From a virus (lineage: Duplodnaviria; Caudoviricetes): a stretch of DNA of 56,378 nucleotides. Positions 2 to 32,663 of this stretch are shown here, in pieces. Position 1 is the stretch's first letter. Every line of letters starts with the position of its first letter. Position numbers and translations under genes: made by a program. Location of the stretch: positions 1 to 56,378 of IMG/VR virus record IMGVR_UViG_3300027816_000119; one strand, given 5' to 3'. The notes beneath the pieces are model-generated. The model saw only the letters and a program-made list of their open reading frames with translations, did no database searches and had not been told where the DNA came from.

Positions 2-3000
2 ACCTACATTATTGATTGCCATATCACTCTTACCATCTTTAACTTCTAGATAATCAGGAATACCATTATTATCAGCATCAGCTGCAAAGTTATTTGCTTG
101 AGGTCCAACAAAATCTGGATTAGGCCCAACTACAGTACTACCACCATTATCATAGTATCCACCATATCCATAATCAGGCATGTAACCACCATAAGCCATA
201 TATGTAGGAACATATCCCCCATATGCCATTGGTAATTGATCTAAGTAATCTTCATTACCTTGAGGTACAACTGAAGAAGGCTGATTACCTCCTGTAGATC
301 CTGCTGGTGGACTAGAAAAATTAAAATCTTCTGCTGTAGGTATGTATTTTGGATCTGAAGTTGGATTTTCTACACCAGGTTTTGGAAAAGGCCCTTTAAA
401 ATTATTGTCAGAAATTCTTGGATTACCTCTTCTTTCATTTATAGCACCACTATCTAAAGGCATATCCCAGAGATCATTTTTCATAAAGTCTCTTCTCATC
501 TTTCTTTTACCAAAGAAACCTTTGCTTTCATATTCATTAGCAAGTTCACTTCTAGTACCTCCTTTAGTATCTCCAAACAAAGCAGGACCTTGTTTTTTAA
601 AGTCTTTCTTAGAAAAACCAGATACATCAAAAGCATCATTCAACCTATCTTTATCAGTATAAGTCTCATACATTTTTTCACCATCAATATCAGTACCTGT
701 ATATCTTTGACTATTTCTTTCATTATAAAATTGAGGAGTGTTAATAACCTCACCTTTGTTACCAATACCAACTATTTCTCCTTGATCATTAACATTAGTG
801 GCTAACATTTCATTTCTTCCAATCTTTCCAGTAGCATCTCTAGCTTGATCATCTTGTACATCTTCTTGAGATCCCTCAGTTGTTGATATATCTTGATTAT
901 TTATATTAGTTGTAGGTTGATTTTTATTTTCATCACCTGGTAAAGCATATGGATAACCTTTCCATCCTGGAATTGTATTATCTGTTTTGTTATCAGTATT
1001 AGAAGTAGTATTAGTCTTAGCATTAGGATCATTATTTGCAGCATTTCCAGCAGCATTCATTACTTCCCACTTAGTAATTCTTTTATCTTTATCAAATGGA
1101 TTAAACCACTTACCTTCTTTGTATTTAGTTTTAACAAGAGTCTTGGTAGGATCTTTCATCATTTGAGCAATCATAGCCTGATCAATTTGACCATCCGGAC
1201 TTGTATAATAATCAAAGTCTCTACTAAAACCAAACATGTTACCAATCATAGAACCAAAGTTTTGTTTAGCTGGACCAAAACCAATTACAGGATTTCCGTC
1301 ACTGTTGGTATAATTAAAAGTACCTTTGTTCTTTAAATCCTGTCCAGTAGGCAAACCTTGACTTCTTAAATATTCTTCAAAACCTTTTTTAGCATTAGGG
1401 TCTGATTGAAATAACTTACTAAAGTAATCTTGATTATAAGGATTAGTTGAAGTATTTGAGTTAGTAGTATTATTTGTAGTAGTAGTGTTAGTAGTACTAG
1501 TATTAGTAGTAGATGCATTTGGATTTTTTTCAGCTTCTTGTTCTGCTTTCCATTCTGCCCAACTTTGAGGTGCTGCTGTACTATAAGCTCCAGTATAAGT
1601 TGAATTTGGACTATTCTTAACTTGTTTACCAGCCAACTCACTATGTCTATCAATATAGTCTTGATAATTCATACCGCGTGCATCTCTATAGTTAGGATCA
1701 ATTTGCTCACCACCAGGATTAAATTGTCTAAGAGATCCACCATAAGCATACTCATCACCACCATAAATAAACTTTTGTAAGTTACCATACTGATCTGGTT
1801 GTAAATTATTTATTGAACCACCAAAAGCTTTTTGATAATCTTCAAAATCTAAAGCTGGTGTTGCACCAAAAATATCATATGGATTTTGAGCACCTGCTTT
1901 GCCAGATACATTTAACCAATCAGCATACTTAGGACTATCTCCACTAAAGTCATAATCATATAGATCAACAGTATTAGTAGTACCGTATGCTTTTTGATTT
2001 TCTTTTTGAAACTTAAGCCATTTATCTATGTATTCATCTAAATTTTTCATTCTTGGTAAATCTTGTTTTGGAATTCTTGATTTAATTGCCTCTATAGCTT
2101 CTTTCTTTGTTACTTTTGATAAGTCAAGTTTTGTTTCATTAAATTTTTCAGCATCAGTAAACCAATCAGACTTATTAGCTGCTCCATAAGCAGTAAGTGC
2201 TTCAGGTAAGTCATTAAATATATTTCTATCCCAACTTTGATCATCAGATAAAGTATAACAACTTTGTCCAGGATAACAAAACTCTTCTGTTTGTGATCCT
2301 GTTTGCTTTGATGTTAATGAATAAGGTGAACTATTAACTGTTGTTGAACTTGATGAAGCTGGTGAATTATTCCCTTCAGTATTCATCATGTATGAATTAT
2401 CTTGAGGATACATTAAACTTTCATCTAGATTTTCAGATGAGAACCTATCAGAATTTAAAAAGTCCATATCTTCATTTCTAGGAACTGGAGTATTAAATGG
2501 ACTTATAGGTTTATTTGTAATTGGCGAATATGGTGTAGGTATAACTTCATTTGAGATAGCTCTATCTTCACTTTCTGATGAAAAATTATTATAGTTTAAT
2601 AATTGTTCATCTGTAAGATTTGGTTGAGATGCTCTTGTTGACATTGTTGTACCAGGTGATCTTTTTACCCAGTGGTCATATTCACTTAATCCATCAGCAT
2701 CTTTTGCAATAAACTGATTAATACTGATAGGAGCTGCTTTACCTCTACCAGAAGCAGCTGGTCCTAAAGATGTCCACCAATCAATATAGTCTTGATATTT
2801 TTTTGTTTGATCAGCTGATACAGGATTATTATTAATTTTAACTTCATTATTTTTAGTTGGATCTGCTGCATTATTAACACTCTCAGTAAACCATTTTAAT
2901 TTAGTTATAGGAGCTGATCTAACAGTTCTAGTTGTTGAATAAGATTGATTAAAATTAAAACCTGGAGCATCTGATGTCCACCAATTCCATAACCCTCTAC

Positions 3001-4240
3001 CTTTTGGCATACTATCACTTACCTGTGACATATAATCTTTTAGTAAGTTAGGATTTGCTTTTAGCATCTCAGACATTTTAGACATGTCATAAGTAGCTTT
3101 TGCTTTTCTTACACCACCAAATGGTCCAAATTCATAATCAGTATCTACAAATGGAGGAGCTATAGGTACACCAAACATACCTCTATTAGCTCTTCTTATT
3201 CTTCTACTAGTTCCTCCAAAAGACATTTGTTGACCATTAAAATCAGTATTAAGCCCTGTAGTACTCATGTCTGGCATTTCATGTGAAAGAGCTTCTCCAT
3301 AGTTATGTAAGTTAGTAGCCCAATCATTTGCGCCACCATTCTCAAATTGTTGATTATACATGCTTTCTGCTTCTTGTTTATATCTTTGTTCATCTGCAAA
3401 ATTTTGAGCTGTACCCTTTATTGCAGACACTAAAGATTTATTAGGAGTAAGATTTATTCCTAAAGGATTATCTAATGTTCCATATGGATTTGGTTGTTTC
3501 TTTATAGATGGGTCTTTTTGCATACCCATTTCTGCTTTTCTAAGTTGTTTAACTGTTGAGTTAATAAACTTCTTTTTATTTGGAATACCACCTTTACGCA
3601 TTGTATTTAAATCCATCTGCATACCAGGCCATTGTATGTTATATCTATCATCTTGCATTTCCATACCATATTGTGCTGTTGCTAATTTTAAAGCATCTTC
3701 AGAAACTTGATTAGGATCATCCATGAGTATTTCATCATCTTCATCAAAGTCTTCTTGAAGATCTTGATCAGACTCATCATTCTCATCTTCTTCAGTTTCA
3801 TAACTTTCATCAATATCTCTAACAGCATCTTCTGATAAAGCTTTACTTTTTTTATTACGTTCTTCAGTTAACCTATCTTCTTCTTCTCTTTTTCTTTCTC
3901 TTCTTTCATCTTCAGTTTCAATAAGTTCAGAATCCATCATAGATTGTTTCTTCTTACTTCTTCTTCTTTTTGAAGAATAGTAATCATCTTCTATTTCATC
4001 CATTACTGAATCAACAAGTTTTTTAGAATAGTCATATGTATAACCTGCATTTTGTAATTGCTGTATAACTATTCTATCAGAAAGATTGTTTTTATCAATA
4101 AGATCTGCAATTTGTGATTTTAATTCTCTTTCTGAATCAACTTGCATACCTGGAGCTGCTGTAGGTAGTGATGTAAATTTATCTAATCTACTAATAAATT
4201 TACCTGTTGTACCTCCAGACTTATATATTCTAACTTTCAT
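2..4240 (-). CDS. Giant low-complexity putative virion cargo/ejection polyprotein, 3' end beyond window (>1400 aa; absent from ORF track)
   Basis: ATG at 4240 (MKVRIYKSGGTTGKFISRLDKF...). Same frame is open in the segments translated by hand and at the window edge (...FAADADNNGIPDYLEVKDGKSDMAINNVG). Acidic tract, N/T-rich tracts and many xxGG motifs. Not every codon checked. Confidence 0.8.
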   Translation of the reverse strand, partial: MKVRIYKSGGTTGKFISRLDKFTSLPTAAPGMQVDSERELKSQIADLIDKNNLSDRIVIQQLQNAGYTYDYSKKLVDSVMDEIEDDYYSSKRRRSKKKQSMMDSELIETEDERRERKREEEDRLTEERNKKSKALSEDAVRDIDESYETEEDENDESDQDLQEDFDEDDEILMDDPNQVSEDALKLATAQYGMEMQDDRYNIQWPGMQMDLNTMRKGGIPNKKKFINSTVKQLRKAEMGMQKDPSIKKQPNPYGTLDNPLGINLTPNKSLVSAIKGTAQNFADEQRYKQEAESMYNQQFENGGANDWATNLHNYGEALSHEMPDMSTTGLNTDFNGQQMSFGGTSRRIRRANRGMFGVPIAPPFVDTDYEFGPFGGVRKAKATYDMSKMSEMLKANPNLLKDYMSQVSDSMPKGRGLWNWWTSDAPGFNFNQSYSTTRTVRSAPITKLKWFTESVNNAADPTKNNEVKINNNPVSADQTKKYQDYIDWWTSLGPAASGRGKAAPISINQFIAKDADGLSEYDHWVKRSPGTTMSTRASQPNLTDEQLLNYNNFSSESEDRAISNEVIPTPYSPITNKPISPFNTPVPRNEDMDFLNSDRFSSENLDESLMYPQDNSYMMNTEGNNSPASSSSTTVNSSPYSLTSKQTGSQTEEFCYPGQSCYTLSDDQSWDRNIFNDLPEALTAYGAANKSDWFTDAEKFNETKLDLSKVTKKEAIEAIKSRIPKQDLPRMKNLDEYIDKWLKFQKENQKAYGTTNTVDLYDYDFSGDSPKYADWLNVSGKAGAQNPYDIFGATPALDFEDYQKAFGGSINNLQPDQYGNLQKFIYGGDEYAYGGSLRQFNPGGEQIDPNYRDARGMNYQDYIDRHSELAGKQVKNSPNSTYTGAYSTAAPQSWAEWKAEQEAEKNPNASTTNTSTTNTTTTNNTTNSNTSTNPYNQDYFSKLFQSDPNAKKGFEEYLRSQGLPTGQDLKNKGTFNYTNSDGNPVIGFGPAKQNFGSMIGNMFGFSRDFDYYTSPDGQIDQAMIAQMMKDPTKTLVKTKYKEGKWFNPFDKDKRITKWEVMNAAGNAANNDPNAKTNTTSNTDNKTDNTIPGWKGYPYALPGDENKNQPTTNINNQDISTTEGSQEDVQDDQARDATGKIGRNEMLATNVNDQGEIVGIGNKGEVINTPQFYNERNSQRYTGTDIDGEKMYETYTDKDRLNDAFDVSGFSKKDFKKQGPALFGDTKGGTRSELANEYESKGFFGKRKMRRDFMKNDLWDMPLDSGAINERRGNPRISDNNFKGPFPKPGVENPTSDPKYIPTAEDFNFSSPPAGSTGGNQPSSVVPQGNEDYLDQLPMAYGGYVPTYMAYGGYMPDYGYGGYYDNGGSTVVGPNPDFVGPQANNFAADADNNGIPDYLEVKDGKSDMAINNVG

Positions 4241-4305: not shown

Positions 4306-7300
4306 TTAGTTATTAAATGGGTTTCTAACATCATCTCCTGTTAAAGCATATGGTTTTCTATTTTTATCCAGTTTCCATGATGCGGCATTATGATCATAAG
4401 CTGCATTGTTTATATTACCTATTTTTGACCAACTAGTCTCACCTGCAGGTTTGTACCATATCATATTGTTATATACATAAGTTACATTCTTATTCTTTAA
4501 TTTTTTTGCAATGTTATAAAAATGTTCTTTTGTTTGTGCTACAGTCATTAACAAGTCAATACTATTAGCTGCCCTTAAATATACATCCTTTGTATTTGTT
4601 AGATTTTTAGATTTTAAAATATTATCTATAGGAGTGTTAAATGTCATAGGTACTTCAGCATAATCTATGTTATAAGCTTTTTTATTCTTAGCATGTTCTT
4701 TAAATGATTTTACTTGATCTGGAATATCAGTAGCAATCACTTTAATTTTCTTTTGTTTTATTTTTGGGTTTTGTGTTAACTCCCATACAGATACACCAGC
4801 AAGTTTTGGATCAGAATTTCCTAATGCAGATCCTATATCAATAATAACAGAGTTAGGTTTAGCCATATCAGCAAAGAATTTTTCTGAGTCAACATTTCTT
4901 TGAACATCCGTTCTATTAGCAATGTCTCTACCCCTACTCATAAATTTACTATAGCGTTCATAATCTTTTTGTTGTCTACCTAGCCATTCTTGATCAACTA
5001 ATTGTGAACTAATACTATTGTCAAAAACAGGAGGTTTTTCTTCAACAGTTTCTTTTGAAGATATATCTTTAGTTAATTTACTCATTGCATCCCAAAGAGA
5101 TAGTTCAGGATCTGGTTTTAAATCAAGAGATGTATTTTCAATACCTTGACCTCTTTGACCATATTCTGCAAATTGAGCAGCACTATTATTACCTAATGGT
5201 TGTTGAGAAGGTTGTCTTGTTAATGATGGTGGAGCACCTGCCATATTTGATTGTGTTAATTGAGCTCTTAGAGCTTCCATATCATATGGCTCTATAACTT
5301 GTTTTTGTTGTACTTCAGGTTTTGCAAACTTTTTAAGTTGATCCATTTTATTTGGAAATAACTTATTCATATCAATTGTAGGTGCCGAAGGTGTTTGTTT
5401 CGCACTATATGGAGAATAACTAACATCTGCTTCTTTTAAAAAGTCTACTACACCTAAGTTATTTAGATTATTAACTTTAGTTTTTGCTTCTTGTTCTGAA
5501 ATTTTTGACATCCTATTAATCCAAGAGTCATAAGCAGTAGACACAGCATCTCCTACTTTATCAATATAAGGAGATGCAAACTTAGATAATGCATCAAATT
5601 GTTCCATTATTGTAGTTCCTTTCTTAGGTTTAGGACCTGGTTTTTTAGGAGCACTTACATTCTTTTTATTAGCAAATAATTCTGGATACTTAAATATTAA
5701 TCCTTCTCTAGTACCTACTTTTTGTTTTACTAAGTCATCTAAGCTATTACCTTGTTTTACTAAAGCAAATACCATTTGATCATATGGAGTAACTGTAGGA
5801 GTAGATTTTGTATCTACTATTTTAGGTTCTCCAAATTCACCAGCCTGAAGTCTTTTAACAAGAGCTAAGTTTTGTTCCATAGTTCCATCAGTAAGACCTT
5901 TAGCTTTTGCTTCAGACCAAGGGGTTCCTGTATATTGATACCATATATCAGATGGTGTACCACCATTAGCCATCATAGGAACAGATACTTCTTCAACATT
6001 ATATCCGTTATTTAAATAGTGTTGAATTTTATCTTCTGGAATATCTAATTCTATATAATCATTTGTAGCTCCACCTTGTTTATAAGGATTATGAACATCA
6101 AAAATAAATCTTGGTGACTCACTTCCAAAACCTTTTGTATTAACTCCAGATACTTTGTAACCTAACTTAGATGGTAATAATAATTCTTGTTCATCAACAT
6201 ATTGTGATCCTGTATACATATTAGGCCTAAAAGCACTTTGTCCTTCAGGAACATTTATAATAGCTACTTTAGATGTAGGATCACCACTTCCCCAAACATT
6301 GCCTGTCATATCAGTAGTTGTACTCCAATTATGTTCTGGATATATTACATCTCCTTCAAGTAAATCATCATAATTTAACATAAGTTCCTGATCACCTCTC
6401 ATTGTTTTAACAGGTCTATTAAAACTAGATGTTCTTCTAACTTGAGCCGGTGCTTTAAGTTTATTAGCCCCTATGACTGGTTCAATTTGATTAGATAAAT
6501 ATTCTGCAAACTGTTTATTACCACCATAACCAGGATTCTTATTAAAGTAACCAGAGTATTCTAACTGATAAGTATCACCTAAAAACTTTTGTTGATTAGT
6601 TAAATCATTTTCTAAACCAGTTGATTTAGCAAATTCATCATCAACTAAAAATCCTTCATTAGACTTTAATTTTCCTACATCATCATGTGCACCAAATACT
6701 AATATTTCATCATCCTTTCCTTTACCAAATTGTTTTTCAAACTTTGGTTTATATTCTTTCAATAATGCATTTGCTTCATTTTTAGCTTGCATAAAAGATT
6801 CTTCAGTTGGAAATAATTCTGGATAAGCTTCATTAGCAGCCTTAAAATTTTTATAACCTTTAGCATGTCTTAACTCTTCAATATTTCTATACTTACTAAG
6901 TATACTACCTTGCGGCTTACCTTTGGTCAATGTTTTAAATCCTTTACCTACATCACTAACTAAATCACCAGCTTTAGCAAAAGTTCCTGCAGTTCTTAGT
7001 CCGCTTAAACCAGGTGCTATTAAACCAGCAACACCAATTGCATCCATTGTTTCATCAAAACCCTCCCCATAGTTAGAACCCGTAAGAGGATTAACACCCA
7101 TGTCAAATTTTCCAGTATTAGCATAGTTATATACACCTTGTCCTAAACCAAGAGGTAGTGTAGTTATATCTCCCATACTTTGACCAACACCTTTTAATGT
7201 GCCTAACGGATCTTCATATACTCTATGTGCTGATGCTATACCAGAAAGTTCAGCAGCAGCATCTCTTACTAAATTAAAGTTTTCAGTTTTTCTAGCGTTA

Positions 7301-9939
7301 GCCTCATCTACTGCATCTTGAAATTGTCCTTTGTAACCTTCCTTCATTAGATTAGAATCAAATTTATCCCAACCTTTTTTCTCATATTCCATTCTAAATT
7401 TAGTACTGGCACTTGGATCTTTACTGTTTTGTGCTTTTTCTCTAGCTTTTTCATACTCAGCTCTATCAGCTGCTTCTTGTTTTCTTTTTTTCTCAGCATC
7501 TTTAAGCTCTGTATTAAAATCACCTTTAAGTCTTTTAACTTCTGATTTAAACTTTTTAATACCTTCTCTATTATAAACAGCGGGTTCTATGTCTCCTTGA
7601 ACACCTGCAATATAACCAACACCCTTACCCAACTCTTCAGCTTCTTTAGTAAGTTTACCAATGTCTTTTCTAAAGAAATCTTGTACTTTTCTTTTAAAAC
7701 CTTTTTTACCAGCCTTAACATCAACGTCACCAAAATCTTTGTAAATTAATCCAGTTGTTGGATCAACATTACTACTACCACTATATCTTTGTGCTGGTGC
7801 AATCCATTGACTCTTAGGAGATCCCCCATTATTAAATCTATTTAAATTAGATGGATAAAAATTATCAAGTTGTTCTACAATATATCCACCATTTATATAT
7901 TTATAAATTTCACTTTCTGGTATGTCTAATTCTATATAATCATTTATTACACCACCTCTTCTATGTATATCTAATGGTACATTACGATCATGATCTCTTA
8001 ATAATTGAGGAATAGATACCTTTTGGTTTTTATCCAGCATCCTAATACCTTGATTACTTACTATATTATAATTTGATCTTATTTCGTGTGGTAGTCTATT
8101 AGACATATAGTGTCCTGAAGTATTTAAATCATATATATTAAATTTACCTGTTCGTGGATTAAATAGAATATTATCTGTATTTTGAAAATCTACATATAAA
8201 CCACTATCTTGTAAATCTTTAATATCTTGAACTAGTTGTTCATAACTACCTCTTCCAACACCCTGCGTAGTATATTGTCCTTTATTACTAATGTCTAATG
8301 TATTACCTGCTTCTTCTTTAAGTATGTTATACCTTGTACCTGTATCATCAACTTTATTCATTACAGTAGCATATTGTTCAGGGTTCTCCCAACTGACATT
8401 ACCCGTTGATAACTTTTGATATCTGATTGGAATTGCAATATTACTTCTATCTCTAAGAGATTTACCTTTTTCAATTAATTCATCTAAGTTTTCATCTCCC
8501 GGAATTCTACCTATTTTTACAACTTTATTAGATCCTGGTATGCTAAATACTTTGCCAAAACTTCCTGAACCTAATTCTTCTTCAAAAGGTGAATACTTTT
8601 TAATTCTATAAGCATCTATTTTTGCATCAACTGTATTCAAATCCATTATAAACTTATCTGCTTTTAAGGAGTGCTCTTTTTGTAATTGTTGTCCAAGTTC
8701 ATAATCTCCTTTAGCTTCAGCTTCTTTTATTTTTTTATTAATCTCTATTGTCTCTTTATTTCTGTTTTTGACTATAAGTTCTTTTTCTTTTCTAAATTGC
8801 CTTGGTATTTTTGTTTTATTTGAATATATTTTCTGAAACTCAGTTAACTGATCTAAGTCAGCAACTTCTGGATCCCATACTTCTTGATATCCTTTTTTCC
8901 AATGAGGAACTTCTCCTGGATTATGAAACTTACTATTATTTCCTAGTACCTTATAAGTATGTTTTAAAGGTGTTTTTGTAGTAAGAAATTTACCAGCATC
9001 AATAGCTAAGTCTGTATTTTTAGTAAACTTTGCTAGTTTACCAGCTGCACCAATTCCTGGTATTACACCAAGAGCATCAAATGTTTCACTTGCACCTTCA
9101 CCATAATTTGCACCAGTAAGTGGATTGATACCCATATCAAAATCACCTTTAGTTGCATAGTTATAAATACCTTCTCCTAAACCTACAGGTAAAGTAGCTA
9201 CATCACCAACAGTTTGTGCAACACCTTTAGCTGTACCAAGAGGATCTGTTAATACTCTATAACCAGCACCTCCACCTAAAAATTCTAACGCAGTATTAGT
9301 AACACCCATGTTAGCTTCTTTTCTAGCATTGGCTTCATCTACTGCATCTTGGAATTGACCTTCATATCCTTCTTTCATTGTAGCAGGATCATAGTTAGCC
9401 CAACCTTTTTCATTATACTGTTGAGCAAACTTATCAGTAGACATCTTTCCAGACTCTTTTTTCTTTAAAGCTTTTTCATATTCTTTTCTATTTCTTTCTT
9501 CAGCTTCATAACCTTTTTCAGCATTCTTGACATCTTTTGTAAACTTATCAAGACCTGCTTTAGTAAAGTTAACAGGTTCAAGGGCTTCACCCGGCATACC
9601 AAAATAAGCACCAGCATTCTTTCCTAAATTTCTTGCTACATCAGCTCTAGTCTTACCGCCTCTTAAAATATAGTCAGAAAACTTTTTACCTTTCTTAGCT
9701 GATGCTTGAACTTGAGGAAGATTTTTAGTACCACTACTATCATAACCACCATACATTCCTGTATAAGAATCTGCAGCTTGCACATTACCTGTGCCCCAAT
9801 TATATTGTACGCATTTTCCAGAAGCATCTCTTATCTGTCCTCTAGGACATGGAGCACCACCTGGAGCAAACTTATTTAATACACCACCTGTTCTATATGT
9901 AGGAGCCTGAGGTAAGCCTACTATTCTAAACTTTTTCAT
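4306..9939 (-). CDS. Multidomain effector polyprotein: carrier module + kinase-like, carrier module + ADP-ribosyltransferase, C-terminal SAM methyltransferase
   Basis: GSGSFGKV/VVKI/DFQNTDNIL/IYDL kinase motifs; R..STT..EQE ART motifs; IIDIGSALG/IATDI/RAANSI MTase motifs; internal ~250-aa duplication; lies downstream of muzzle gene. Confidence 0.75.
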   Translation of the reverse strand: MKKFRIVGLPQAPTYRTGGVLNKFAPGGAPCPRGQIRDASGKCVQYNWGTGNVQAADSYTGMYGGYDSSGTKNLPQVQASAKKGKKFSDYILRGGKTRADVARNLGKNAGAYFGMPGEALEPVNFTKAGLDKFTKDVKNAEKGYEAEERNRKEYEKALKKKESGKMSTDKFAQQYNEKGWANYDPATMKEGYEGQFQDAVDEANARKEANMGVTNTALEFLGGGAGYRVLTDPLGTAKGVAQTVGDVATLPVGLGEGIYNYATKGDFDMGINPLTGANYGEGASETFDALGVIPGIGAAGKLAKFTKNTDLAIDAGKFLTTKTPLKHTYKVLGNNSKFHNPGEVPHWKKGYQEVWDPEVADLDQLTEFQKIYSNKTKIPRQFRKEKELIVKNRNKETIEINKKIKEAEAKGDYELGQQLQKEHSLKADKFIMDLNTVDAKIDAYRIKKYSPFEEELGSGSFGKVFSIPGSNKVVKIGRIPGDENLDELIEKGKSLRDRSNIAIPIRYQKLSTGNVSWENPEQYATVMNKVDDTGTRYNILKEEAGNTLDISNKGQYTTQGVGRGSYEQLVQDIKDLQDSGLYVDFQNTDNILFNPRTGKFNIYDLNTSGHYMSNRLPHEIRSNYNIVSNQGIRMLDKNQKVSIPQLLRDHDRNVPLDIHRRGGVINDYIELDIPESEIYKYINGGYIVEQLDNFYPSNLNRFNNGGSPKSQWIAPAQRYSGSSNVDPTTGLIYKDFGDVDVKAGKKGFKRKVQDFFRKDIGKLTKEAEELGKGVGYIAGVQGDIEPAVYNREGIKKFKSEVKRLKGDFNTELKDAEKKRKQEAADRAEYEKAREKAQNSKDPSASTKFRMEYEKKGWDKFDSNLMKEGYKGQFQDAVDEANARKTENFNLVRDAAAELSGIASAHRVYEDPLGTLKGVGQSMGDITTLPLGLGQGVYNYANTGKFDMGVNPLTGSNYGEGFDETMDAIGVAGLIAPGLSGLRTAGTFAKAGDLVSDVGKGFKTLTKGKPQGSILSKYRNIEELRHAKGYKNFKAANEAYPELFPTEESFMQAKNEANALLKEYKPKFEKQFGKGKDDEILVFGAHDDVGKLKSNEGFLVDDEFAKSTGLENDLTNQQKFLGDTYQLEYSGYFNKNPGYGGNKQFAEYLSNQIEPVIGANKLKAPAQVRRTSSFNRPVKTMRGDQELMLNYDDLLEGDVIYPEHNWSTTTDMTGNVWGSGDPTSKVAIINVPEGQSAFRPNMYTGSQYVDEQELLLPSKLGYKVSGVNTKGFGSESPRFIFDVHNPYKQGGATNDYIELDIPEDKIQHYLNNGYNVEEVSVPMMANGGTPSDIWYQYTGTPWSEAKAKGLTDGTMEQNLALVKRLQAGEFGEPKIVDTKSTPTVTPYDQMVFALVKQGNSLDDLVKQKVGTREGLIFKYPELFANKKNVSAPKKPGPKPKKGTTIMEQFDALSKFASPYIDKVGDAVSTAYDSWINRMSKISEQEAKTKVNNLNNLGVVDFLKEADVSYSPYSAKQTPSAPTIDMNKLFPNKMDQLKKFAKPEVQQKQVIEPYDMEALRAQLTQSNMAGAPPSLTRQPSQQPLGNNSAAQFAEYGQRGQGIENTSLDLKPDPELSLWDAMSKLTKDISSKETVEEKPPVFDNSISSQLVDQEWLGRQQKDYERYSKFMSRGRDIANRTDVQRNVDSEKFFADMAKPNSVIIDIGSALGNSDPKLAGVSVWELTQNPKIKQKKIKVIATDIPDQVKSFKEHAKNKKAYNIDYAEVPMTFNTPIDNILKSKNLTNTKDVYLRAANSIDLLMTVAQTKEHFYNIAKKLKNKNVTYVYNNMIWYKPAGETSWSKIGNINNAAYDHNAASWKLDKNRKPYALTGDDVRNPFNN

Positions 9940-9941
9940 AT

Positions 9942-12900
9942 TTAAATTTCTTCAAATGTATAACCTAAACCTAAACTTTCTAAATATCCTTTAGTATCTT
10001 CATCTACTTCATCACCTAATTGGTAATCAGTCTCACCACCTTCTTCTTTAATTATTAAATTATAACCTGGTGTACCTTCTCTTCCTAAATCTTGATGATA
10101 ATAACTTTCAAAATCTTGTTTAGTAAGACCACCTGGATTTAATCCATAGTACTCATATCTACCATTATCTAAATGAATATATTGAGCATCTTTATTTTTC
10201 TTCAAAAAGTCATTTACTAAATCTACACCTTTTTTACCAGATGTTATATAAGCAAATTCAGCTTTCTTAGTTGATGGTGAATACAATATAAACTTACCTG
10301 TGTTAGGTGTATTCTGATAAATAGGATCTCCGTTTTTATCCAAGAGTCTCATTTCATTACCATTCATTATTGCTTTATCTATATTCTTAGCTCCAAATCT
10401 TCTTGGTACTATTTCAGTATCTGGATCAAATTCATTTGCTTTACCTACTTTAAATTTACCATCTTCTATTCCATAGAAAGATTCAATTTTATTAGATGGA
10501 TACTTTTTATCTGAATATGTATCTGTAGCAGTTAACCAATCTTTAGCCTTTCTAACTGTATTATTAGCATCCTCTATAAACTCACCACCGATTATAATTT
10601 TACCATCTTTTGTTTCATTAACTTTAGCAAAATCCATAGGGGTATTAGTTATATCAATAAGTGTATCTTTAGAACTTAAACCTCCAGGTACACCTGTAAC
10701 TCCAACATTTTTTAAAATTTTATTTTTAATCGGGGGTGGTGAAAAAGCTGTTCCAAAAACAGCAGCGGCTCCAGGATAAGCTGATCCTACTAAACCAGCT
10801 ATTGTGTAATCAGTAGCATTCCAGTTTCTTCCTCCATAAAGTATTGGGTTTACTCTACTTCTATTACCTGTAGTAATAGCTTCATTTAAATGTTCATCCA
10901 TGTAGTTAGGTAAAGTCCAATCACTTCCATATTTATTTATTAAATCCGCATGTTCTTGAGAAAACTTTTGATATTCAGGTGAATTTTTATAAGCTAATAT
11001 TTCTTCTTCTGTTAAAGGTCCTTTTGGATATCTTTGAAATGCTCCTTTAAGATTTATAGAGTAGCCACTTTTTACTGGAGGAGGTGTACCACCTTCAATA
11101 GGAGCTTTTGGTTCTACTTGTAGTAATGATTCTTTATTATAACCTCTTTTACCAAAATCAAAATTACTATTCTTAAGTCTGTCTAATTCTCTTAACTGAG
11201 CTTCAGTAAGCATATCCCCTTGTTTCCTACCTGTTTCAATAAGATCATTATAAAACTTTCTATTAGCAAATGACATTTTTTTAGAATCATAACTATCTAA
11301 CAGTTGCTTATAGTAATTTAAATTTTTCTTAACCATATTACTACCACTACCACTTGGTCCTAGTAACATCATAGGTCCAGGAGGTCTATTAAAAAATTTA
11401 TTTACCATGTTTGATACAGGTGAATTAGGAGAGCCAGGTAATTGCTTAGACCATGTTTTACCTCCATCTAAACTATACTCTATATCTTTACCTTTAACAG
11501 CCGGATACTGACCCATAAAACCTAGATCCTTTTTACCTTTATTAGCAAATCTTAATAATACAGGTTTACCACCAGTTGCTTCTGCTGAGTAACCTGCAAA
11601 ATTTAAAGCATATCCACTATCTCCTGCAGCAGTTGTAAAACCTTTTCCTAATTTATCAGGCATCATACCACCTGTATTTACGGCATCACCTAAACTATTA
11701 TCCAATTCAGATGATAAAATATTTTTTAATCTAGCATCAGATGTACCGTGATATAAGTATTTAGGCACAGGAAGTTTTAAATCATTTTTTATTACTTCTG
11801 CAGCAGCTATAAGATTAGAATTTGAAAAACCAAATCCTTTATTACTATAAGTATTAAGTACCTCATTAACTGTTTTATTAGAACTTTTTGCAACTTCTTT
11901 TAAAAAGTCTGCTGCTTCTTGCTCTGTTTTAAAACTTGAGTTAGCTACAATATCATCTATATGTTTTTGTAGTGTAATGTCAGAAGCTCCTGAAGAATTT
12001 ATTTTACCTGTATTTTGAAAAGTTGATTTAACACCTTTACCTAAATCAGTTACAAGATCTCCTGCTTTAGTAAATTTTGATAATTTACTAATAGCATTTA
12101 TACCAGGTATAGCTCCAAGAACATCAAAGGTTTGATTAATACCACTACCATAGTTTTCACCTGTAAGTACATTTGTACCCATATCAAAATTTCCGGTATT
12201 AGAATAATTTACTGCACCTTCAACTAAACCTTGAGGTAATGTTGCAACATCAGCAACAGTTTTAGCTACACCTTCAGCAGTACCAACAGGATCGGCAACT
12301 ATTCTATATGCTCCGCCACCAAGTAGTTCTAATGCTGTATTAGTAACTCCCATATTGGCTTCTTTTCTTTTGTTAGCTTCATCAACAGCTTCTTGAAATT
12401 GACCTTTGTAAGCTTCATTCATTACATTGGGATCAAATCTATCCCAGCCTTTTTCTTCATACTCCATTCGGAATTTAGTTCCTGCACTTAAATCTTTACT
12501 ACTCTGTGCTTTTTTTCTTGCCTTTTCATATTCTTTTCTTTCTTTCTCTTCATTTTTATAATACTTGTTTTGTTCAGAAACTATATTATTTATATAACTT
12601 TTAAATCTTTTAATTCCTTCTTTAGTTGTATTTGTAGAAATTAACGGTTCATTAGCACCTATACCAAACTCTGAAGAATATTTTTTACCAAAGTCTTTCA
12701 TTTGTTCTAACCTGGTTTTACCACCTCTGAGAATCCAATCAGAAAGTTTCTTTCCTTTTTTAGCTTGAATATTAATACCACTTTTATTTTTAATCCATTC
12801 TTTTGAATTTCTATCATACTCCCATCCTTCTGCTTGTGGACCGATATGGTAATCCCAATCAACATCCACAAGATTCCAATCTAAGGGAACACATTCTCCT

Positions 12901-15473
12901 TTAGAATTTCTATAATATCCTCTACCACATGGAGAACCACCTTCTATAAATTTATCTAATGATCCACCATACTTTCCATACTGAATATCATCTTTATTAG
13001 AATCCTTCTTAGCAATAAGATTAAATAACCTCATTAAGCTTTCATCATCTTTTGCTGTTCTAAATAATAAGTAAATATCTTGATTAAAGTTTTTATTATC
13101 TTTATCAAGCATTCCTTTTTTCTCAGCCTCCTCTCTCATCTGATTCAATCTCTCTGGAGTAATTACCTCATCAGGTTTAAGATTAAATTTCTTTCTAGCC
13201 ACATTAAGATATGATTGAATATTCTGTTCTTCTGGATTTATTATGTAATCATAAAATTGTTGTTTTTCTTTTGGCCAAGTTTTATCAAAAGGAATTATAT
13301 TTTCTTTTACAATTTTGTCATACATAGGATACAACTTGTCTCTCACAGGTTCCATAAGATAATTAGTTAACTCATGTCTTTCTGTATCAGACTTTTGTTC
13401 AGGTGTAAGTTCTGGACTAAAATATATTTTTGGAACTTTTCCACTTGTGTCATACATTCCAACTGCTCGGAAACCTCCTATATTTTCTTGCGTATATTCC
13501 TCTGGCATTGTTTCATATACTGGGAATGATTGCATTTGTTTAAGCATAGGTGATTCAGGATTGTATGCTGGTAATGCTTTTTCTACAACCTTTTTAAAAC
13601 TAGGTTGATCTTCTGGAAAATCTATTTTTCTATTCTTATACCATTCAACCATCCATCTTTGATCTTCTGTCATATTCTCTTCAGACAGAGGAATACAACC
13701 AAGTTTTGGATCATAAGTATAACCATCATCACATGGAGAACCACCTGCTATAAATTTATGTAATGACCCACCAAGTTCTTGCTTATATGGACTCATAAAT
13801 TGACCTGGATCATTTGGTCCTTTTTTTAAATATACATTATTAGCAGGATTTTTATTTACAATACCATCAGGTAACATGTTTTGATTAGAGAGTTCTAATA
13901 AAGCATTTGTCTTATCTCTTGAGCTCATAGGTAATATACCTACACCAGCACCAACAGCATTATTTAGTATATCTTCACCAGACTCTGTAAATTTAACCAA
14001 CCATGGTCTATCATCATTAAATATAGTTTCTAACTCATGACCTACACCCATTGCATTAGCACCTAAAAAACCAGCAGCTTGCGGTATACCTGTGTATTGT
14101 GCCCAGTCTGGAAAATAATCCATAATTGCTTCAGCTGCATATCTACCACCTTGAGGATGTCTAAAATTATCTATAGGATCATCATCTTCTTTTGCAGCAC
14201 CATAAGCAGACATAGCTGCTTTGTCCATAGGATTATCTAAAGCACTATTTATTTTATCCTCAAAGCTATTACCTCTATATAAAATTTCTTGAGTTGAACC
14301 AGGATCATATAGTTCTATTTCTTTTATTTCTCTTAGCAATCCTGCTGCTGTTTCTTGATCAGCAAGTAAAGGTGAATTTTTTAATTTCTCATATTGCTCA
14401 ACTAACTTTTGATAATAAGAACTAAATGTATCAGTTTTTTTGTTAGCTTTTTTAGCTGCAGCTTTAGCTTTTTTAGATGCTTTTATTGTAACTTCTTTAA
14501 GATTTTGTATATATGTAGGATTGTATGATCTTTTAGGAATAGTCTTGTCTAAATATTTTTTAAATTCTTCATCTGAATTATTTTCTAATATTCTTCTTTT
14601 TTCATCCTGTAATAAATACAATGGAGTATAATCAACTAATGCATTTTCACATCTTTTAGTATATGGATTCCATACTTGACCTTTCCCACATGGTTTATTT
14701 GAACCACCTCTATCATAATCAACTAAGCCACCATCTTCATAATATTTTGCATTAGGATCATAAATTCTATTCTTTACTTTCTTAGGTTTAAATAATTTAT
14801 TTTTTACAAACAGTTTATTCTTACCAAAAATACTTTTTGTGTACTTCATAGAATTTAAACTACCACCCTTACGGAACTGCTCTCCTACAGATCCTAATGC
14901 AGCTATTACTTCAGGCTTATCATCAAAATGCTTTTCTACTCCAAGTTGTTTTACTTTACGTACCTTAGCTTCATCTGAACCAGTAGCTATAATATTTTCA
15001 ACTGGAATGCCTGCTTGTCTAGCTCGGGCAATCATATCTGGTGTTACTTTATCTCTGGCAGATACAATAAAAAGATTATAGCCATCTCTAAACATTTTCT
15101 TAGCTTTAGCTAAACCTTCAGGTGTTGCAATAGTTTTATCAAAGTCAAAAGATGCATATTTACCTTTACCAAAATCTTCTGGCTGCTCCATCTCTGAATG
15201 CTCTCTATAATTAGCTGTAAGTTCTGAACCAGCGGGGATATTTTTTAAAGCTCTTAGGTATCTTTTATCTCCTATTACTTCATTACTAGTATTAAAGTTT
15301 TTTTCATCATGATTATAGAACTTACCAAACTGATTTGGTACAAATCTTATTCTATCATTATCTATAGGAATGCCAGAGTGTACGGGTAATATTAGTTCAC
15401 CCTTTTTAATTAGTTCTTGAGTAAATAAACCTTTACCATGTATCTTGGACTTTCCAACTTTTACTTTCTTCAT
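9942..15473 (-). CDS. Multidomain effector polyprotein: SET, HAD-like, DNFRH/DILNN domain, degenerate zincin, carrier module, HGT-type ART-like, C-terminal unknown domain
   Basis: SKIHGKGLF..NH..GSELTANY (SET); FDFDKT..VSAR..FDD (HAD); HELTN; LYHGTS; third copy of carrier module. Confidence 0.75.
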   Translation of the reverse strand: MKKVKVGKSKIHGKGLFTQELIKKGELILPVHSGIPIDNDRIRFVPNQFGKFYNHDEKNFNTSNEVIGDKRYLRALKNIPAGSELTANYREHSEMEQPEDFGKGKYASFDFDKTIATPEGLAKAKKMFRDGYNLFIVSARDKVTPDMIARARQAGIPVENIIATGSDEAKVRKVKQLGVEKHFDDKPEVIAALGSVGEQFRKGGSLNSMKYTKSIFGKNKLFVKNKLFKPKKVKNRIYDPNAKYYEDGGLVDYDRGGSNKPCGKGQVWNPYTKRCENALVDYTPLYLLQDEKRRILENNSDEEFKKYLDKTIPKRSYNPTYIQNLKEVTIKASKKAKAAAKKANKKTDTFSSYYQKLVEQYEKLKNSPLLADQETAAGLLREIKEIELYDPGSTQEILYRGNSFEDKINSALDNPMDKAAMSAYGAAKEDDDPIDNFRHPQGGRYAAEAIMDYFPDWAQYTGIPQAAGFLGANAMGVGHELETIFNDDRPWLVKFTESGEDILNNAVGAGVGILPMSSRDKTNALLELSNQNMLPDGIVNKNPANNVYLKKGPNDPGQFMSPYKQELGGSLHKFIAGGSPCDDGYTYDPKLGCIPLSEENMTEDQRWMVEWYKNRKIDFPEDQPSFKKVVEKALPAYNPESPMLKQMQSFPVYETMPEEYTQENIGGFRAVGMYDTSGKVPKIYFSPELTPEQKSDTERHELTNYLMEPVRDKLYPMYDKIVKENIIPFDKTWPKEKQQFYDYIINPEEQNIQSYLNVARKKFNLKPDEVITPERLNQMREEAEKKGMLDKDNKNFNQDIYLLFRTAKDDESLMRLFNLIAKKDSNKDDIQYGKYGGSLDKFIEGGSPCGRGYYRNSKGECVPLDWNLVDVDWDYHIGPQAEGWEYDRNSKEWIKNKSGINIQAKKGKKLSDWILRGGKTRLEQMKDFGKKYSSEFGIGANEPLISTNTTKEGIKRFKSYINNIVSEQNKYYKNEEKERKEYEKARKKAQSSKDLSAGTKFRMEYEEKGWDRFDPNVMNEAYKGQFQEAVDEANKRKEANMGVTNTALELLGGGAYRIVADPVGTAEGVAKTVADVATLPQGLVEGAVNYSNTGNFDMGTNVLTGENYGSGINQTFDVLGAIPGINAISKLSKFTKAGDLVTDLGKGVKSTFQNTGKINSSGASDITLQKHIDDIVANSSFKTEQEAADFLKEVAKSSNKTVNEVLNTYSNKGFGFSNSNLIAAAEVIKNDLKLPVPKYLYHGTSDARLKNILSSELDNSLGDAVNTGGMMPDKLGKGFTTAAGDSGYALNFAGYSAEATGGKPVLLRFANKGKKDLGFMGQYPAVKGKDIEYSLDGGKTWSKQLPGSPNSPVSNMVNKFFNRPPGPMMLLGPSGSGSNMVKKNLNYYKQLLDSYDSKKMSFANRKFYNDLIETGRKQGDMLTEAQLRELDRLKNSNFDFGKRGYNKESLLQVEPKAPIEGGTPPPVKSGYSINLKGAFQRYPKGPLTEEEILAYKNSPEYQKFSQEHADLINKYGSDWTLPNYMDEHLNEAITTGNRSRVNPILYGGRNWNATDYTIAGLVGSAYPGAAAVFGTAFSPPPIKNKILKNVGVTGVPGGLSSKDTLIDITNTPMDFAKVNETKDGKIIIGGEFIEDANNTVRKAKDWLTATDTYSDKKYPSNKIESFYGIEDGKFKVGKANEFDPDTEIVPRRFGAKNIDKAIMNGNEMRLLDKNGDPIYQNTPNTGKFILYSPSTKKAEFAYITSGKKGVDLVNDFLKKNKDAQYIHLDNGRYEYYGLNPGGLTKQDFESYYHQDLGREGTPGYNLIIKEEGGETDYQLGDEVDEDTKGYLESLGLGYTFEEI

Positions 15474-18400
15474 TACCTTGGAGAATATTGATTTTTAGTA
15501 TTAAATATTTTCAAGATCATATTAGTATCTCTTGAATTTACTTTAGCTAACTTAATAAAATTTAAGTAATGTCTAAACTTTTTTCTCTGTAATTGATTTT
15601 TATTTATATCAATATTCTGATAGTTGATAGTTTTAATATAACCATTAGGTGCAGTTATCCATAAATTTTCTTGTCTATAAGAACCAGATAAAATTGTTGT
15701 CCCAGGTATTACAGGATTTGTAGGAGGATAGTCTGGTAACTGTTGAGGAGAAGGATAAGGAAATTCTCCACGGTCTTTTACTGAATCCCAGAATTGATTA
15801 AATCTATATTTGTTTTCTTCTTTAGAAAATAAAATATCAAATCCAGCTTTTGGTGTAATTGTAGGATCAATAAAAATTGAATTGTTAACTTTTGGATATT
15901 GTAAGTTTAGTGGTGGATTATTCTTAGCATAAATATTTAATTTCAAATATGGTGATATTTGTTCTGTATTATGAATTACAGCATAATCAAAATTATAATC
16001 TAGTACATGAAATTGATCTACACAGTTTTCTTGGTTTCTTTTATAACATTCTAAAACATATTCTACACTTTTTAAAGTAGTAACAGTTTGACCAGTTACT
16101 ATTGGAAACTCAACTTCAAATGGATACTGCGTCCCATAAAAATTACAATAGTCATTACATTCAATATTATGAGCCCAAAATTCATCAGCTCTTGTACTTA
16201 CAATTGTACTCTTAGTAGGTAAAGTAAGATCTGGATGCCAGTCATGAAATGAAATCCAAAATCTATTTTTAGGGTCATAACTTGCTGTCCATGAAGCATC
16301 TTCAAATATTGCAGGATCTCCTAAAATATAAATTTTATTTCCTTGTAAAGGATCCATAGTATCTAGAAAATAACTTTCAGTAGGTGTACTTATATATTGA
16401 ATTCTATTTGGATTTTGTGGTGTATTAAAACCATCTATCAATTTATAATCTTTTTTACAGAAATATAATACTGAATTTTCATTATCATAAATAGCTTGAC
16501 ATCCAATACCGGCTACAGGATTATCAGCATAATCATATTCTGGAAAATCTTCTAATAACTTAGATGGTAAAAATTCATCAAACCACCATTTCATTCCTGA
16601 TTGTGATATCTCTGTTATACCTTCATTATAAGTAAATATTTTACCTTGATTTTGTGATATATAATAAATACCAGCCGGTGTAGATATAACAGCCAATCTA
16701 CTTTGAGATGAACCATACTGATATGGTTTATCTGTAACAACTAGATTTTGAGCTTCTCTTGCAAATAACCCACCATCTCCTACAGTTACTTTAACACCTG
16801 AACCATCAAGTTGTAATTGATCAACTCCTTGAAATACTTGAGGGCCATCATTTTTAAATGTAATAAGAGCTCCGGTTCTAGCAAAGTTTTTAACTGAACT
16901 AATTTGACTAATAAAATCTTTACGGTTATTAGGTAGAAAAATAAACCATGCATCTTCTACAGAGCCTTGAACAAAAGGTAAAGAATAAGTAATAACATTA
17001 GGAAAATATGTATAACATAAACTTGCTACCTTAGGATCATAGTATCTATTTTGTAATGCACCAAATGTTAAAAATTTACTTGGTAATCTTGATGCACTTA
17101 AAGATAAATCATAAATATAAAAATTACCTCTTGTAATAATTATAGGATCCATTTTAAATAACTGTTGTAAATCAGTGTATCTATATGGATGATAACATTT
17201 TTCAAAATCAAATGTACCTACTTCTCTAAAGTCAAGAAGTATATCTGTTTCTACATAAAAGTCTCTTACTCCAGACACAGAAGTATAAAAGTATGAATTT
17301 CTAGGAATCCAAAATCCAGGATAAGGTGTAGCATCATCAGTAGAATGATCATAATTTATACTTTCTAGATTATAAAAATCTGTAGGAAATAGCCCAGTAC
17401 CCGGAGCAGCTGCTGTTGTTATTCCTAAAAAGTCAGATAAGTTTTCTACAGATATATTAGAAAAATCATAGTGTGTACTATTCATCCAGTATCTTGCTTG
17501 AGGAAGCATTTGATTTACAAAATAGTTATATTCAAAATCATCTGCTACTCCATACAACCAGTTATAAAACATCAACATTATATTCTTTTCTGTAAATCTA
17601 CATATGTATGTATCACCTCCAAAAAAGATATCTGTTTGAGCAATTAGTTTGTAGTAATAAGTTTGAGGAGTTGGTATAGGATCATTTAGTGTTGCTACAC
17701 TAGGTTGTATAAAATTACCTAAAAGTGCTGGACTATAGTCTTTTATCAAAGTACCAAAAGCATCTCTCTTTTGTTCACAAGGAGTAATTACTTGTTGCTT
17801 TATAGAATCTAACTGGCCGTATTGATTTTTTAAAGTTACTTTTATAGCACCATAGTGACTAGCTATTTTTGTTTGAAACCCAATTGTCTTTTTATCTTCC
17901 TCATCAATTTTAGGACCTAATCCTCCTACGTCTGCATGATACAGTGTAATTGAAGATTGATCCTGAGCATTACTAATTTGTTGAGCTAATGTAGTACCTG
18001 AAGTTAAAAAGCTTGGTCCTGTTGTAGCACCAGTATTTGCTTGAGCTGTTCTTAATACAACCAACTTGGGTCTAAAAATATTTTGTATTGTATATTTTTT
18101 AATTGTGCTTGTAGTAGTATCAATATAATCTGGAATTTCTTGATTGGTATCATTAATAACATATAGTGAATCTTCTACTTTAAATCTATATAGTTCACCT
18201 GGTTTTCTAGGATCAAATCTATCATAGTAACCATGACCAATTTGTTGTAATGCATATTGCTTTAATGGAGCAATAGCATATAAAAATTCATTAGCTGTTT
18301 TTAATCCTTGTGCAAAGAAAAAAGCAAAATTTTGTAGACCACCTAAAAATGCTAACCAAGGTGGTAACATCTGAGATTGAGAAAGTTCATTTGTATAAGT

Positions 18401-24502: not shown

Positions 24503-24516
24503 GATTATTATTTTAA

Positions 24517-24945
24517 TTATCCTATAATAACAATTCTAGTATTACCAGAACCAGCTATTCTTGTTACAACAAGTGTATTTAACGCATATGCAGTAACAGT
24601 ATAGTTATCTGGATTAATAAGTGAGTTAGTTGTAATATCAATCAATTGAATTTGTACGGCTACATTACCTAAATTATGTGTAACAGTAACTGGAGTACCT
24701 GTTGCAAGTACTTCTTCTACTACATATTTTTTAGGTGTTGCACAAACAAATGCAGTTAGTTTTGCAACAATTGCATCTAAGTAATCATATCTACTAATTA
24801 TTGTTTGATCATTACATAAAATATCAGTACCTGTATAAACTACACATTGTGCATTATAAGTCTCAGGACATGTTGGTGGACATGGAGGAGCTACTACATA
24901 AGTATCAGTACATCCGCAAGGTTTTCCACAGTTATTAGTTGCCAT
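24517..24945 (-). CDS. Short fibre/adaptor protein with Cys-rich N-terminal domain
   Basis: N-terminus paralogous to that of 23255..24502; C-terminal VTHNLG motif common in fibre proteins. Confidence 0.6.
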
Positions 24946-24978
24946 CTTTTTTATTTTAAATTAAACATATATACATTT

Positions 24979-26664: not shown

Positions 26665-26690
26665 ATCTTTATCTTATTATAATATACAAA

Positions 26691-28838: not shown

Positions 28839-28842
28839 TAGA

Positions 28843-29052
28843 TTATACCTTAATAAATTTATCTAAATTTTTATATCTATCTTTTCCCCAAACAACTGGT
28901 TCTGATTGAACTACATTTTGTTTTGGTTTATTAGTTTTTAATTTTTCTTCATATGCAATTACACATGATGAACATACAGATGTTCCGTCAGATGCTGTTC
29001 TTCTTTGACAGGAACAACCTATTTTAATTCCACAGTTTGGACATGCACTCAT
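28843..29052 (-). CDS. Small Cys-rich (Zn-binding) protein
   Basis: CPNC..GCSC..CSSC; AAAACCAACAA leader. Confidence 0.65.
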   Translation of the reverse strand: MSACPNCGIKIGCSCQRRTASDGTSVCSSCVIAYEEKLKTNKPKQNVVQSEPVVWGKDRYKNLDKFIKV

Positions 29053-32662: not shown

Positions 32663-32663
32663 G

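Follow-up and report, generated by a model that had tools for sequence, protein, structure and literature searches.

Two abutting giant genes in the 56-kb virus record IMGVR_UViG_3300027816_000119 (56,378 nt, all of it analysed and here called the window; CheckV completeness about 47%) probably encode multi-effector 'polyvalent' virion cargo of a divergent crAss-like phage. The genes occupy a hypervariable slot behind the muzzle gene, and their products appear to be assembled from cassettes like those of polymorphic toxins. The proteins, P0001 (1843 amino acids (aa); 9942-15473, directly downstream of the muzzle gene) and P0002 (1877 aa; 4306-9939), are encoded 2 nt apart on the minus strand, on which all other features described below also lie. 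This reading draws on a module repeated three times, the diversity of the domains (tips) that follow it, breakpoints of similarity at its C-terminal edge, conserved synteny, a kinase fold, a SET domain and an R-S-E motif. Each cassette would follow one syntax: a helical adaptor of about 250 aa, then a differing enzyme and, in P0002, a short conserved tag. P0001 comprises, in order, a SET domain, a HAD-like region, two unknown domains, the module, a tip resembling an ADP-ribosyltransferase (ART) with an HGT motif, a conserved block and a C-terminal region. The order in P0002 is an N-terminal GG-KF-Cys motif, module, kinase, tag, module, R-S-E ART, tag, an unknown region and a C-terminal domain.

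The module is found once in P0001 (copy 1, aa 904-1152; 12018-12764) and twice in P0002 (copy 2, aa 79-322, 8974-9705; copy 3, aa 741-1003, 6931-7719). BLASTP and MAFFT gave 44-59% identity between the copies, with E values of 1e-53 to 1e-82 and 97 invariant columns, and a six-frame scan of the window with a hidden Markov model (HMM) found exactly three copies. The threefold repeat of a module of this length, proposed in a preliminary description of this DNA, is thereby borne out with coordinates agreeing to within about 30 nt. The N-terminus of the module is basic; long helices follow, and the C-terminal part is Gly-rich with an 'NPLTG...P.GK' loop. Conservation is widest in the last 100 or so residues ('E.TG.p..R...DP.GT.kGv..T..D...NPLTG..Y..G...T.Dv....P..G..GK'). 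An AlphaFold2 model calculated from 26 sequences is all-helical and non-globular (mean predicted local distance difference test score (pLDDT) 64.9). Long helices are predicted confidently at module residues 48-110, and the Gly-rich C-terminal third with low confidence. The idea of a classical membrane anchor was dropped because the module contains no hydrophobic segment of transmembrane grade (maximum Kyte-Doolittle value 1.28).

Scored against 1,835,955,588 protein representatives, the module profile proved rare, with 56 proteins matching at E ≤ 1e-3 and 27 at E ≤ 1e-30, P0001 itself among them. Tips were compared by single-linkage BLAST clustering of the 300 residues after each module in P0001, in P0002 and in those representatives whose module is followed by 100 residues or more. 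The 56 downstream regions fell into 26 clusters, of which 17 were singletons and the largest had 14 members. Fewer than 100 aa follow the module only in P0048 (21 aa) and in P0037 and P0054, which are truncated. Among the annotated tips of other proteins are GNAT (P0022 and locus L002) and ART-PolyVal (P0013, E 1e-6). BLAST similarity between window and representatives stops within 30 residues of the C-terminal edge of the module in 39/47, 42/52 and 39/52 alignments for the three copies; swapping of tips at that edge would be expected to leave such a pattern. The earlier suggestion of a constant module joined to a variable tip agrees with these results; the downstream domain is not constant.

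Ten loci were fetched from IMG/VR and metagenomes. Judged by contig name or coordinates, L004, L006 and L008 are apparently the same contigs as L001 and L005, and seven loci were examined (L001, L002, L003, L005, L007, L009 and L010). Each of the seven has a muzzle homolog (48-54% identity) that is followed, as the first or second open reading frame (ORF), by the module gene. The muzzle gene of the window (1800 aa; 15473-20875) matches Pfam crAss_MUZ at E 4.2e-27 and PHROG 37948, a virion structural protein, at E 3e-42, so that the location behind a crAss muzzle gene, already proposed in the preliminary description, holds. This gene forms the conserved left border of a variable cargo slot. The conserved right border is a third giant ORF (at least 1413 aa; 2-4240), which runs off the window and whose homologs, 22-27% identical, sit after the module gene in L001, L007, L009 and L010. 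Between these borders the contents amount to 669 aa in L009, 759-766 aa in L001 and L007, 1212 aa in L010 and 3720 aa in the window; the slot holds several ORFs in L002 (1757 + 1313 aa) and L005 (1669 + 1086 + 1477 aa, about 4,200 aa in all). The number of module copies per locus ranges from 1 to 3 among these relatives with 48-54% identical muzzles.

The genes for P0001 and P0002 are flanked on their own strand by the muzzle, the capsid and PHROG virion structural proteins. The capsid gene (36015-37631) matches Pfam Crass_capsid at E 5e-29, and the closest cultured relatives of the muzzle protein, from Cellulophaga, Flavobacterium and Leptolyngbya phages, are merely 24-27% identical to it; from these matches and that of crAss_MUZ the source is a divergent, uncultured crAss-like phage. 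The G+C content of the window is 30-35% and nearly every long ORF is on the minus strand. The ORF list of the window contains no ORF of at least 80 aa between P0001 and P0002, and P0002 is followed by a 65-nt gap and then the next giant ORF. There is thus no cognate immunity ORF at either position, as the preliminary description had remarked of the junction between the two abutting genes.

Module copy 2 is followed by a helical hairpin and a truncated protein-kinase-like tip (P0002 aa 323-665; 7945-8973). The kinase-like part, at about aa 450-620, contains the string GSGSFGKVF...VVKIG, with key residues G457-x-G459-x-x-G462, K475 and E483. The GxGxxG glycines and the lysine are invariant in an 8-sequence alignment, A8 (22-80% identity; G137, G140, K153). 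An AlphaFold2 model built from A8 reaches pLDDT values of 70-93 over model residues 40-210. When this model was compared with the PDB using Foldseek, 152 matches were obtained at E ≤ 1e-3 with a probability of 1.00. Forty of the 41 rows listed were protein kinases, OspG and NleH2 included, the other being an axoneme-map chain; OspG and NleH2 gave the best target-normalised TM scores (0.43-0.50). In VIA-align, NleH1 (4lrj_A) was matched with a Z score of 8.3 over 133 aligned residues. VIA-wide returned mostly helical-hairpin matches to model residues 40-129, the kinase part appearing only at rank 39, again with NleH1. At the sequence level the tip gave no Pfam Pkinase match, a single-sequence search of the PDB was at chance level and a profile search of the PDB found no kinase. 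The structural comparison supports a kinase fold for the modelled tip, with kinase activity as a prediction, and the kinase-like domain originally seen behind one of the modules is sustained by it. OspG and NleH are type III secreted effectors of enteric bacteria. In both these proteins and the tip of P0002 the kinase fold is cut down to the N-lobe and catalytic core, but identity is only 14-18% and we claim no evolutionary link. A clade of truncated kinases has been reported in polyvalent proteins of Bacteroidetes phages (PMC5512222), and the predicted fold fits the clade as described there.

R-S-E ARTs of the Alt/VIP2/C3 type share an Arg, a Ser-Thr-Ser/Thr and a Glu/Gln-x-Glu element at spacings of about 40 residues. 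In the tip behind module copy 3 (P0002 aa 1005-1295; 6055-6927) the residues R1169, S1206-T-T and E1250-Q-E1252-LLLP are separated by 37 and 44 residues, and they are invariant in P0002, P0024 and P0052 (29-64% identical). A search for homologs of 160-510 aa recovered only three close, unannotated relatives, and tblastn of the tip against the phage collection gave no match. In an hhalign comparison the ExE-LLP motif falls on residues 572-595 of T4 Alt (P 0.035). The motif, taken with sub-threshold family matches, is suggestive of an Alt/VIP2-type R-S-E ART-like domain. T4 Alt is itself described as an R-S-E ART that is injected with the DNA and modifies host RNA polymerase (PMC5512222). Both ARTs are encoded among late or structural genes and their ExE-(V/L)(I/L)LP motifs align. 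They differ in that Alt is a single effector with its own targeting and processing, whereas the ART of P0002 is one cassette among several, and the likeness between them is at the level of the motif.

The N-terminus of P0001 is a SET lysine-methyltransferase-like domain (aa 1-95; 15189-15473; Pfam 28 bits against a cut-off of 22.4, E 3e-6). SET is also present in L002 (E 1.5e-9) and P0005 (E 3.4e-7). In a sequence search of the PDB, 29 of 30 weak matches were titled histone-lysine methyltransferases, including PBCV-1 vSET, and the top-scoring row was an untitled chain, 4rz0_A PFL0690c. SET was also the only Pfam family found when P0001 and P0002 were scanned as whole proteins; PHROGs gave no match. 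The next region of P0001 (aa 104-200; 14874-15164) contains a DxDxT motif (FDFDKT...) and is assigned as HAD-like phosphatase at the level of the motif, the Pfam Hydrolase match having an E value of only 0.047. With SET, the kinase fold, the R-S-E motif and the HAD-like motif, P0001 and P0002 are predicted to combine at least two disparate activities in one polypeptide.

The tip behind module copy 1 (P0001 aa 1160-1345; 11439-11996) is H-Y-E-like. It contains YLYHGTS at aa 1239-1245, and the candidate residues H1242-G-T, Y1288 and E1332 are invariant, but just among sequences that are about 65% identical. A language-model search (Atlas) led to PARP and Tox-ART-HYD1 (0.85), and tblastn reached T4-like Acinetobacter phages at E 0.3-0.9, one of the genes being annotated as a putative ADP-ribosyl transferase. 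These leads point weakly to an ART-like tip, the weakest of the three tip assignments; of the HGT-type ART first proposed, the HGT motif stands but the family matches are all sub-threshold. The homologs P0059-P0061, about 65% identical, are without a full module and end in the tag. Members of the wider protein family (these relatives of the tip, and L002:5931-11204) carry a lytic transglycosylase (SLT E 3e-9; PDB 9udh E 3e-10) or a peptidoglycan-binding domain. Lytic transglycosylases are typical of ejected internal virion proteins, and both kinds of domain fit proteins that cross the cell wall on leaving the virion. No homolog of the HGT domain was found among the module-bearing representatives. 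P0001 also has a block conserved at 65-70% (aa 1332-1472; 11058-11480) that contains NRPPGPMMLLGPSGSGSN. This block is common to P0005, P0010, P0014, P0015 and P0016, and in P0010 and P0014 it directly precedes the terminal tag; its P-loop-like string is without the Lys. A 14-member 'HGT cluster' of tips was rejected, as it is this block and not the HGT domain that holds it together.

A resemblance of the Gly-rich end of the module to the pre-toxin domain PT-TG had also been put forward. PT-TG sequences for comparison were taken from Bacillus genomes, the Bacillus phage SPBc2, which was tried first, containing none. Aligning 52 module with 12 PT-TG sequences in hhalign gave P 0.0016 and a probability of 16% over 39 columns, with the module's NPLTG...P.GK..K in register with DPxTGE...P.GK.K of PT-TG. 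None of 100 column-shuffled controls reached this score (maximum 20.0 versus 29.2) and the reversed alignment scored 17.7. A smaller pair (8 versus 9 sequences) gave the identical register with P 0.014 and a probability of 3%. The Pfam HMM (PF14449; cut-off 23.5 bits) had no match to the module at E ≤ 5, nor was there a match at E ≤ 0.01 in a six-frame PT-TG search of the record; in the search control Bacillus PT-TG was found at 58-81 bits. In the Atlas search, PT-TG and LXG clusters were among the nearest named neighbours of the module (0.85-0.90), which we treat as a lead only. The proposed resemblance has a weak trace in the register of the TG motif and none in the family search. The likeness of the module's C-terminal part to PT-TG is suggestive, weak and not established. 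PT-TG is described as an uncharacterised domain with a predicted disordered loop that is thought to be a linker or delivery aid (PMC13483458), a description matched by the low-confidence part of the module prediction. Shared features are the position directly N-terminal to variable effector domains, as in the LXG/WXG, type VI secretion system (T6SS) and contact-dependent inhibition (CDI) toxins discussed in PMC13483458, and the '(D/N)PxTG...P.GK' stretch. Unlike PT-TG (68 positions), the module has about 250 aa with a large helical N-terminal part, stands in a phage virion gene block without an immunity gene and can occur more than once in the same polypeptide.

Besides the module, P0001 and P0002 have two short recurrent elements. 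A six-frame search by regular expression found four two-cysteine linkers, 'GGxLxKFxxGGSPCxxGx(6-9)C', all of them within these two proteins, between domains or at the N-terminus of P0002 (14649-14708, 13695-13772, 12891-12968 and 9811-9888). The same motif forms the N-terminus of P0007, P0008 and P0010. The second element is a tag of about 25 aa with the consensus 'GG...(D/E)(L/I)(T/S/P)xxEIxxYxxxGYxVE' ('ELTxEEIxxYxxxGYxVE'). In P0002 it follows the kinase (GGVINDYIELDIPESEIYKYINGGYIVEQLD, aa 663-692; 7864-7953) and the R-S-E ART (GGATNDYIELDIPEDKIQHYLNNGYNVEEVS, aa 1289-1318; 5986-6075). P0001 ends in a degenerate form (GGETDYQLGDEVDEDTKGYLESLGLGYTFEEI; 9945-10043), which is not significant against the tag HMM; similar C-termini are present in P0005 and P0006. 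Across 60 related proteins the tag HMM placed the tag within 12 residues of the C-terminus in 28 and internally in 29, internal tags typically preceding a module by 50-100 residues. None of the three tags of the window had a match when scanned with Pfam. DUF7210 was rejected as the identity of the tag, the single match (E 0.019) being at the C-terminus of P0053. Since the tag is the true C-terminus of separate proteins in many relatives, P0002 resembles a fusion of three cargo genes. The place where tag and N-terminal motif adjoin would be either a frequent point of fission and fusion or a processing site, and the tag itself might be a signal for packaging or docking, or else a junction for processing. 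The tag had been overlooked in the preliminary description, as had the SET and HAD-like domains of P0001, which have no module, and the published concept of polyvalent proteins.

That concept was introduced for effectors with several domains, encoded by phages and conjugative elements and predicted to pass into the host together with the DNA; T4 Alt serves as the prototype (Iyer 2017, PMC5512222). We favour virion cargo of this type because P0001 and P0002 resemble the type of Iyer et al. and because the genes that follow the muzzle in crAss001 encode proteins found in virions. In crAss001, gp45 and gp46 come directly after the muzzle gp44 and have been identified as virion cargo by mass spectrometry and cryo-EM; their extrusion before the DNA, in a partly unfolded form, has been proposed (PMC10172136). 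From the synteny with gp45 and gp46 we infer that P0001 and P0002 are likewise transferred with the DNA. They would be packed in the capsid or tail and extruded ahead of the DNA in a partly unfolded state, after which the enzymatic tips may modify host proteins by phosphorylation, ADP-ribosylation and lysine methylation, leading to takeover of the cell or a blunted defence. The adaptor would supply a constant context for handling of the protein, and its C-terminal edge would supply homology for exchange of tips by recombination between phages.

The proteins resemble the polyvalent proteins described in PMC5512222 in being giant polypeptides with disparate enzymes (ART, truncated kinase, GNAT) encoded together with virion genes. 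They differ in features that the main text of that paper does not mention, namely crAss-like phages, SET, a pre-toxin or PT-TG domain and a repeated adaptor; its supplements, with 40 novel domains, might list the module or the tag. The likeness to the crAss001 cargo proteins C1 and C2 (gp45 and gp46) lies in the position right after the muzzle and before giant conserved genes. The difference lies in size and content: gp45 and gp46 have 842 and 534 aa and no annotated enzymatic domains, whereas about 3,700 aa of enzyme cassettes are encoded here. A full-text literature search returned nothing relevant tying crAss-like phages to polyvalent proteins, or Crassvirales to ADP-ribosyltransferase cargo. 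The context of a crAss-like cargo slot, the adaptor before each of several effectors in one polypeptide and the terminal and junction tags therefore appear to be new, as does the presence of an Alt-type R-S-E ART and a SET domain inside polyvalent-type proteins.

A number of observations weigh against this reading. Packaging, ejection, enzyme activity, targets and the adaptor role are all inferred. No similarity was detected between crAss001 gp45-gp50 and the module, P0001, P0002 or ORF 2-4240 (hmmsearch and BLAST E values for gp45 and gp46 of 0.1 or worse). The zincin-like metallopeptidase is given in PMC5512222 as the commonest, though not obligatory, hub domain of polyvalent proteins; no peptidase family came up when P0001 and P0002, in which two segments are unassigned, were scanned with Pfam. 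The SET, HAD-like and other domains of P0001 have no preceding module, so that not every effector domain requires the adaptor. Confidence in the module model is only moderate, and Foldseek gave nothing usable for it in BFVD (best E 0.62). No cultured phage with the module was found among 50,697 phage records by tblastn of the module or megablast of the locus. The kinase-tip model, for all its well-predicted core, has a low mean pLDDT of 56. The R-S-E ART proposed at the outset keeps its invariant R/STT/ExE motif but remains below the Pfam cut-off, ADPrib_exo_Tox scoring 16.1 bits against 23.4 (E 0.0074) on the STT-to-ExE part. Its close homolog P0024 has no Pfam match at E ≤ 0.05, a PDB profile search with the tip retrieved no ART and a single-sequence search was at chance level. 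For the HGT tip, Pfam gave Tpt1 at E 0.019 (15.4 bits) and PARP at E 0.045 (13.7 bits), where the cut-offs are about 26, and the PDB profile search retrieved no ART, only the lytic transglycosylase of the tip's relatives; with the single sequence of this tip, too, PDB matches were at chance level.

We also considered a structural role, in which the module would be an ejectosome element lining the tail barrel or a trans-envelope channel, as in proposals for crAss001 gp45 and T7 gp14-16. On this view the enzymes would travel along as accessory passengers, and needs of stoichiometry or geometry, not the handling of effectors, would account for the three copies. The all-alpha model with its confident long helices at residues 48-110 and the SLT or peptidoglycan-binding domains of relatives would suit such an element, as would the position equivalent to that of gp45, which is described as having a tail-barrel-bound helix and an N-terminal transmembrane helix (PMC10172136). 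The module, however, has no segment of transmembrane grade (maximum Kyte-Doolittle value again 1.28) and no similarity to gp45 or gp46. A copy number that varies from 1 to 3 among loci with 48-54% identical muzzles is hard to square with a fixed role, and at least 100 aa lie downstream of the module in all but P0048, P0037 and P0054. We regard this role as unlikely.

The proteins might instead be multi-enzyme proteins expressed late and remaining in the cytoplasm unpackaged, with module and tag as inter-domain linkers or oligomerisation elements. The indirect nature of the case for packaging of P0001 and P0002 leaves room for this, and the tag and the GG-KF-Cys motif also occur between domains that have no module. 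The genes, however, are co-oriented with and embedded in a virion block, between the muzzle and the next giant conserved gene, and their equivalents in crAss001 are reported to encode packaged proteins (PMC10172136). Takeover enzymes would moreover be most useful at the moment of DNA entry, as described for T4 Alt (PMC5512222), and we consider a purely cytoplasmic role improbable. A third alternative is that the phage carries polymorphic toxins for use between bacteria, comparable to the MuF toxins of temperate phages, which the cell making them would release against competitors, with immunity encoded elsewhere. This would account for the conserved region with its variable C-terminal domain, the PT-TG-like motif and the ART domains, which are common as toxin tips. 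We think it very improbable: the genes abut with no small ORF after either, and the tips, several to a polypeptide, are protein-modifying enzymes, alongside SET, GNAT and HAD-like domains, and not nucleases or pore formers. Nor did any integrase or lysogeny gene come to notice in the window (no systematic search for them was made).

If P0001 and P0002 are indeed polyvalent virion cargo, the locus suggests that the cargo slot of one environmental crAss-like lineage is a rapidly exchanged, host-modifying arsenal (kinase, two ART types, SET, GNAT and others) sharing the syntax of bacterial polymorphic toxins. Crassvirales and their relatives are among the most abundant phages. Their cargo space is large by cryo-EM, and its contents beyond RNA polymerase subunits are largely unknown. 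The locus yields testable candidates for injected takeover or anti-defence effectors, and the adaptor and terminal tags amount to a natural experiment on the features needed for packing and ejection. The module is, in addition, a possible functional handle on the PT-TG pre-toxin domain. A more speculative extension, which we hold to be doubtful, is that the adaptor, the 'GG-KF-GGSPC' motif and the 'ELTxEEIxxYxxxGYxVE' tag together form a cargo code of this crAss-like lineage, serving packing, ordered ejection in an unfolded state, possibly cleavage at tag junctions, and plug-and-play exchange, with PT-TG-type domains as a general threading device. Were this so, the PT-TG-type domains of T6SS, type VII secretion system and CDI toxins would thread proteins through narrow conduits, a device that virions and secretion systems have in common.

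Some other features of the window are recorded here. The C-terminal domain of P0002 (aa 1653-1867; 4339-4983) has an 'IIDIGSALG...VIATD' motif and is 40% identical to a homolog in P0051. Sequence searches of Pfam and the PDB found no match to this domain, which, judging by its motif, is possibly a Rossmann or S-adenosylmethionine-binding fold. The third giant ORF, 2-4240, gave no match in Pfam, PHROG or the PDB and no BLAST similarity to crAss001 gp47; it may be a candidate for the virion RNA polymerase subunit expected at that position. It begins with 'SGGTTGKFISRLDKF', which is related to the two-cysteine linker motif. Downstream of the capsid gene and upstream of tail-fibre-like genes (23255-31083) there are seven small ORFs (101-134 aa; 32372-34901) that are extremely basic, with 'KKGGS'/'KNGG' repeats, and could be DNA-condensing or internal proteins. 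Several Cys-rich proteins with N-terminal 'PPCPP' motifs are encoded at 23255-31083, and one of them, of 415 aa, has matches to many tail-fibre families of PHROG (best E 4e-31); presumably these proteins bind receptors.

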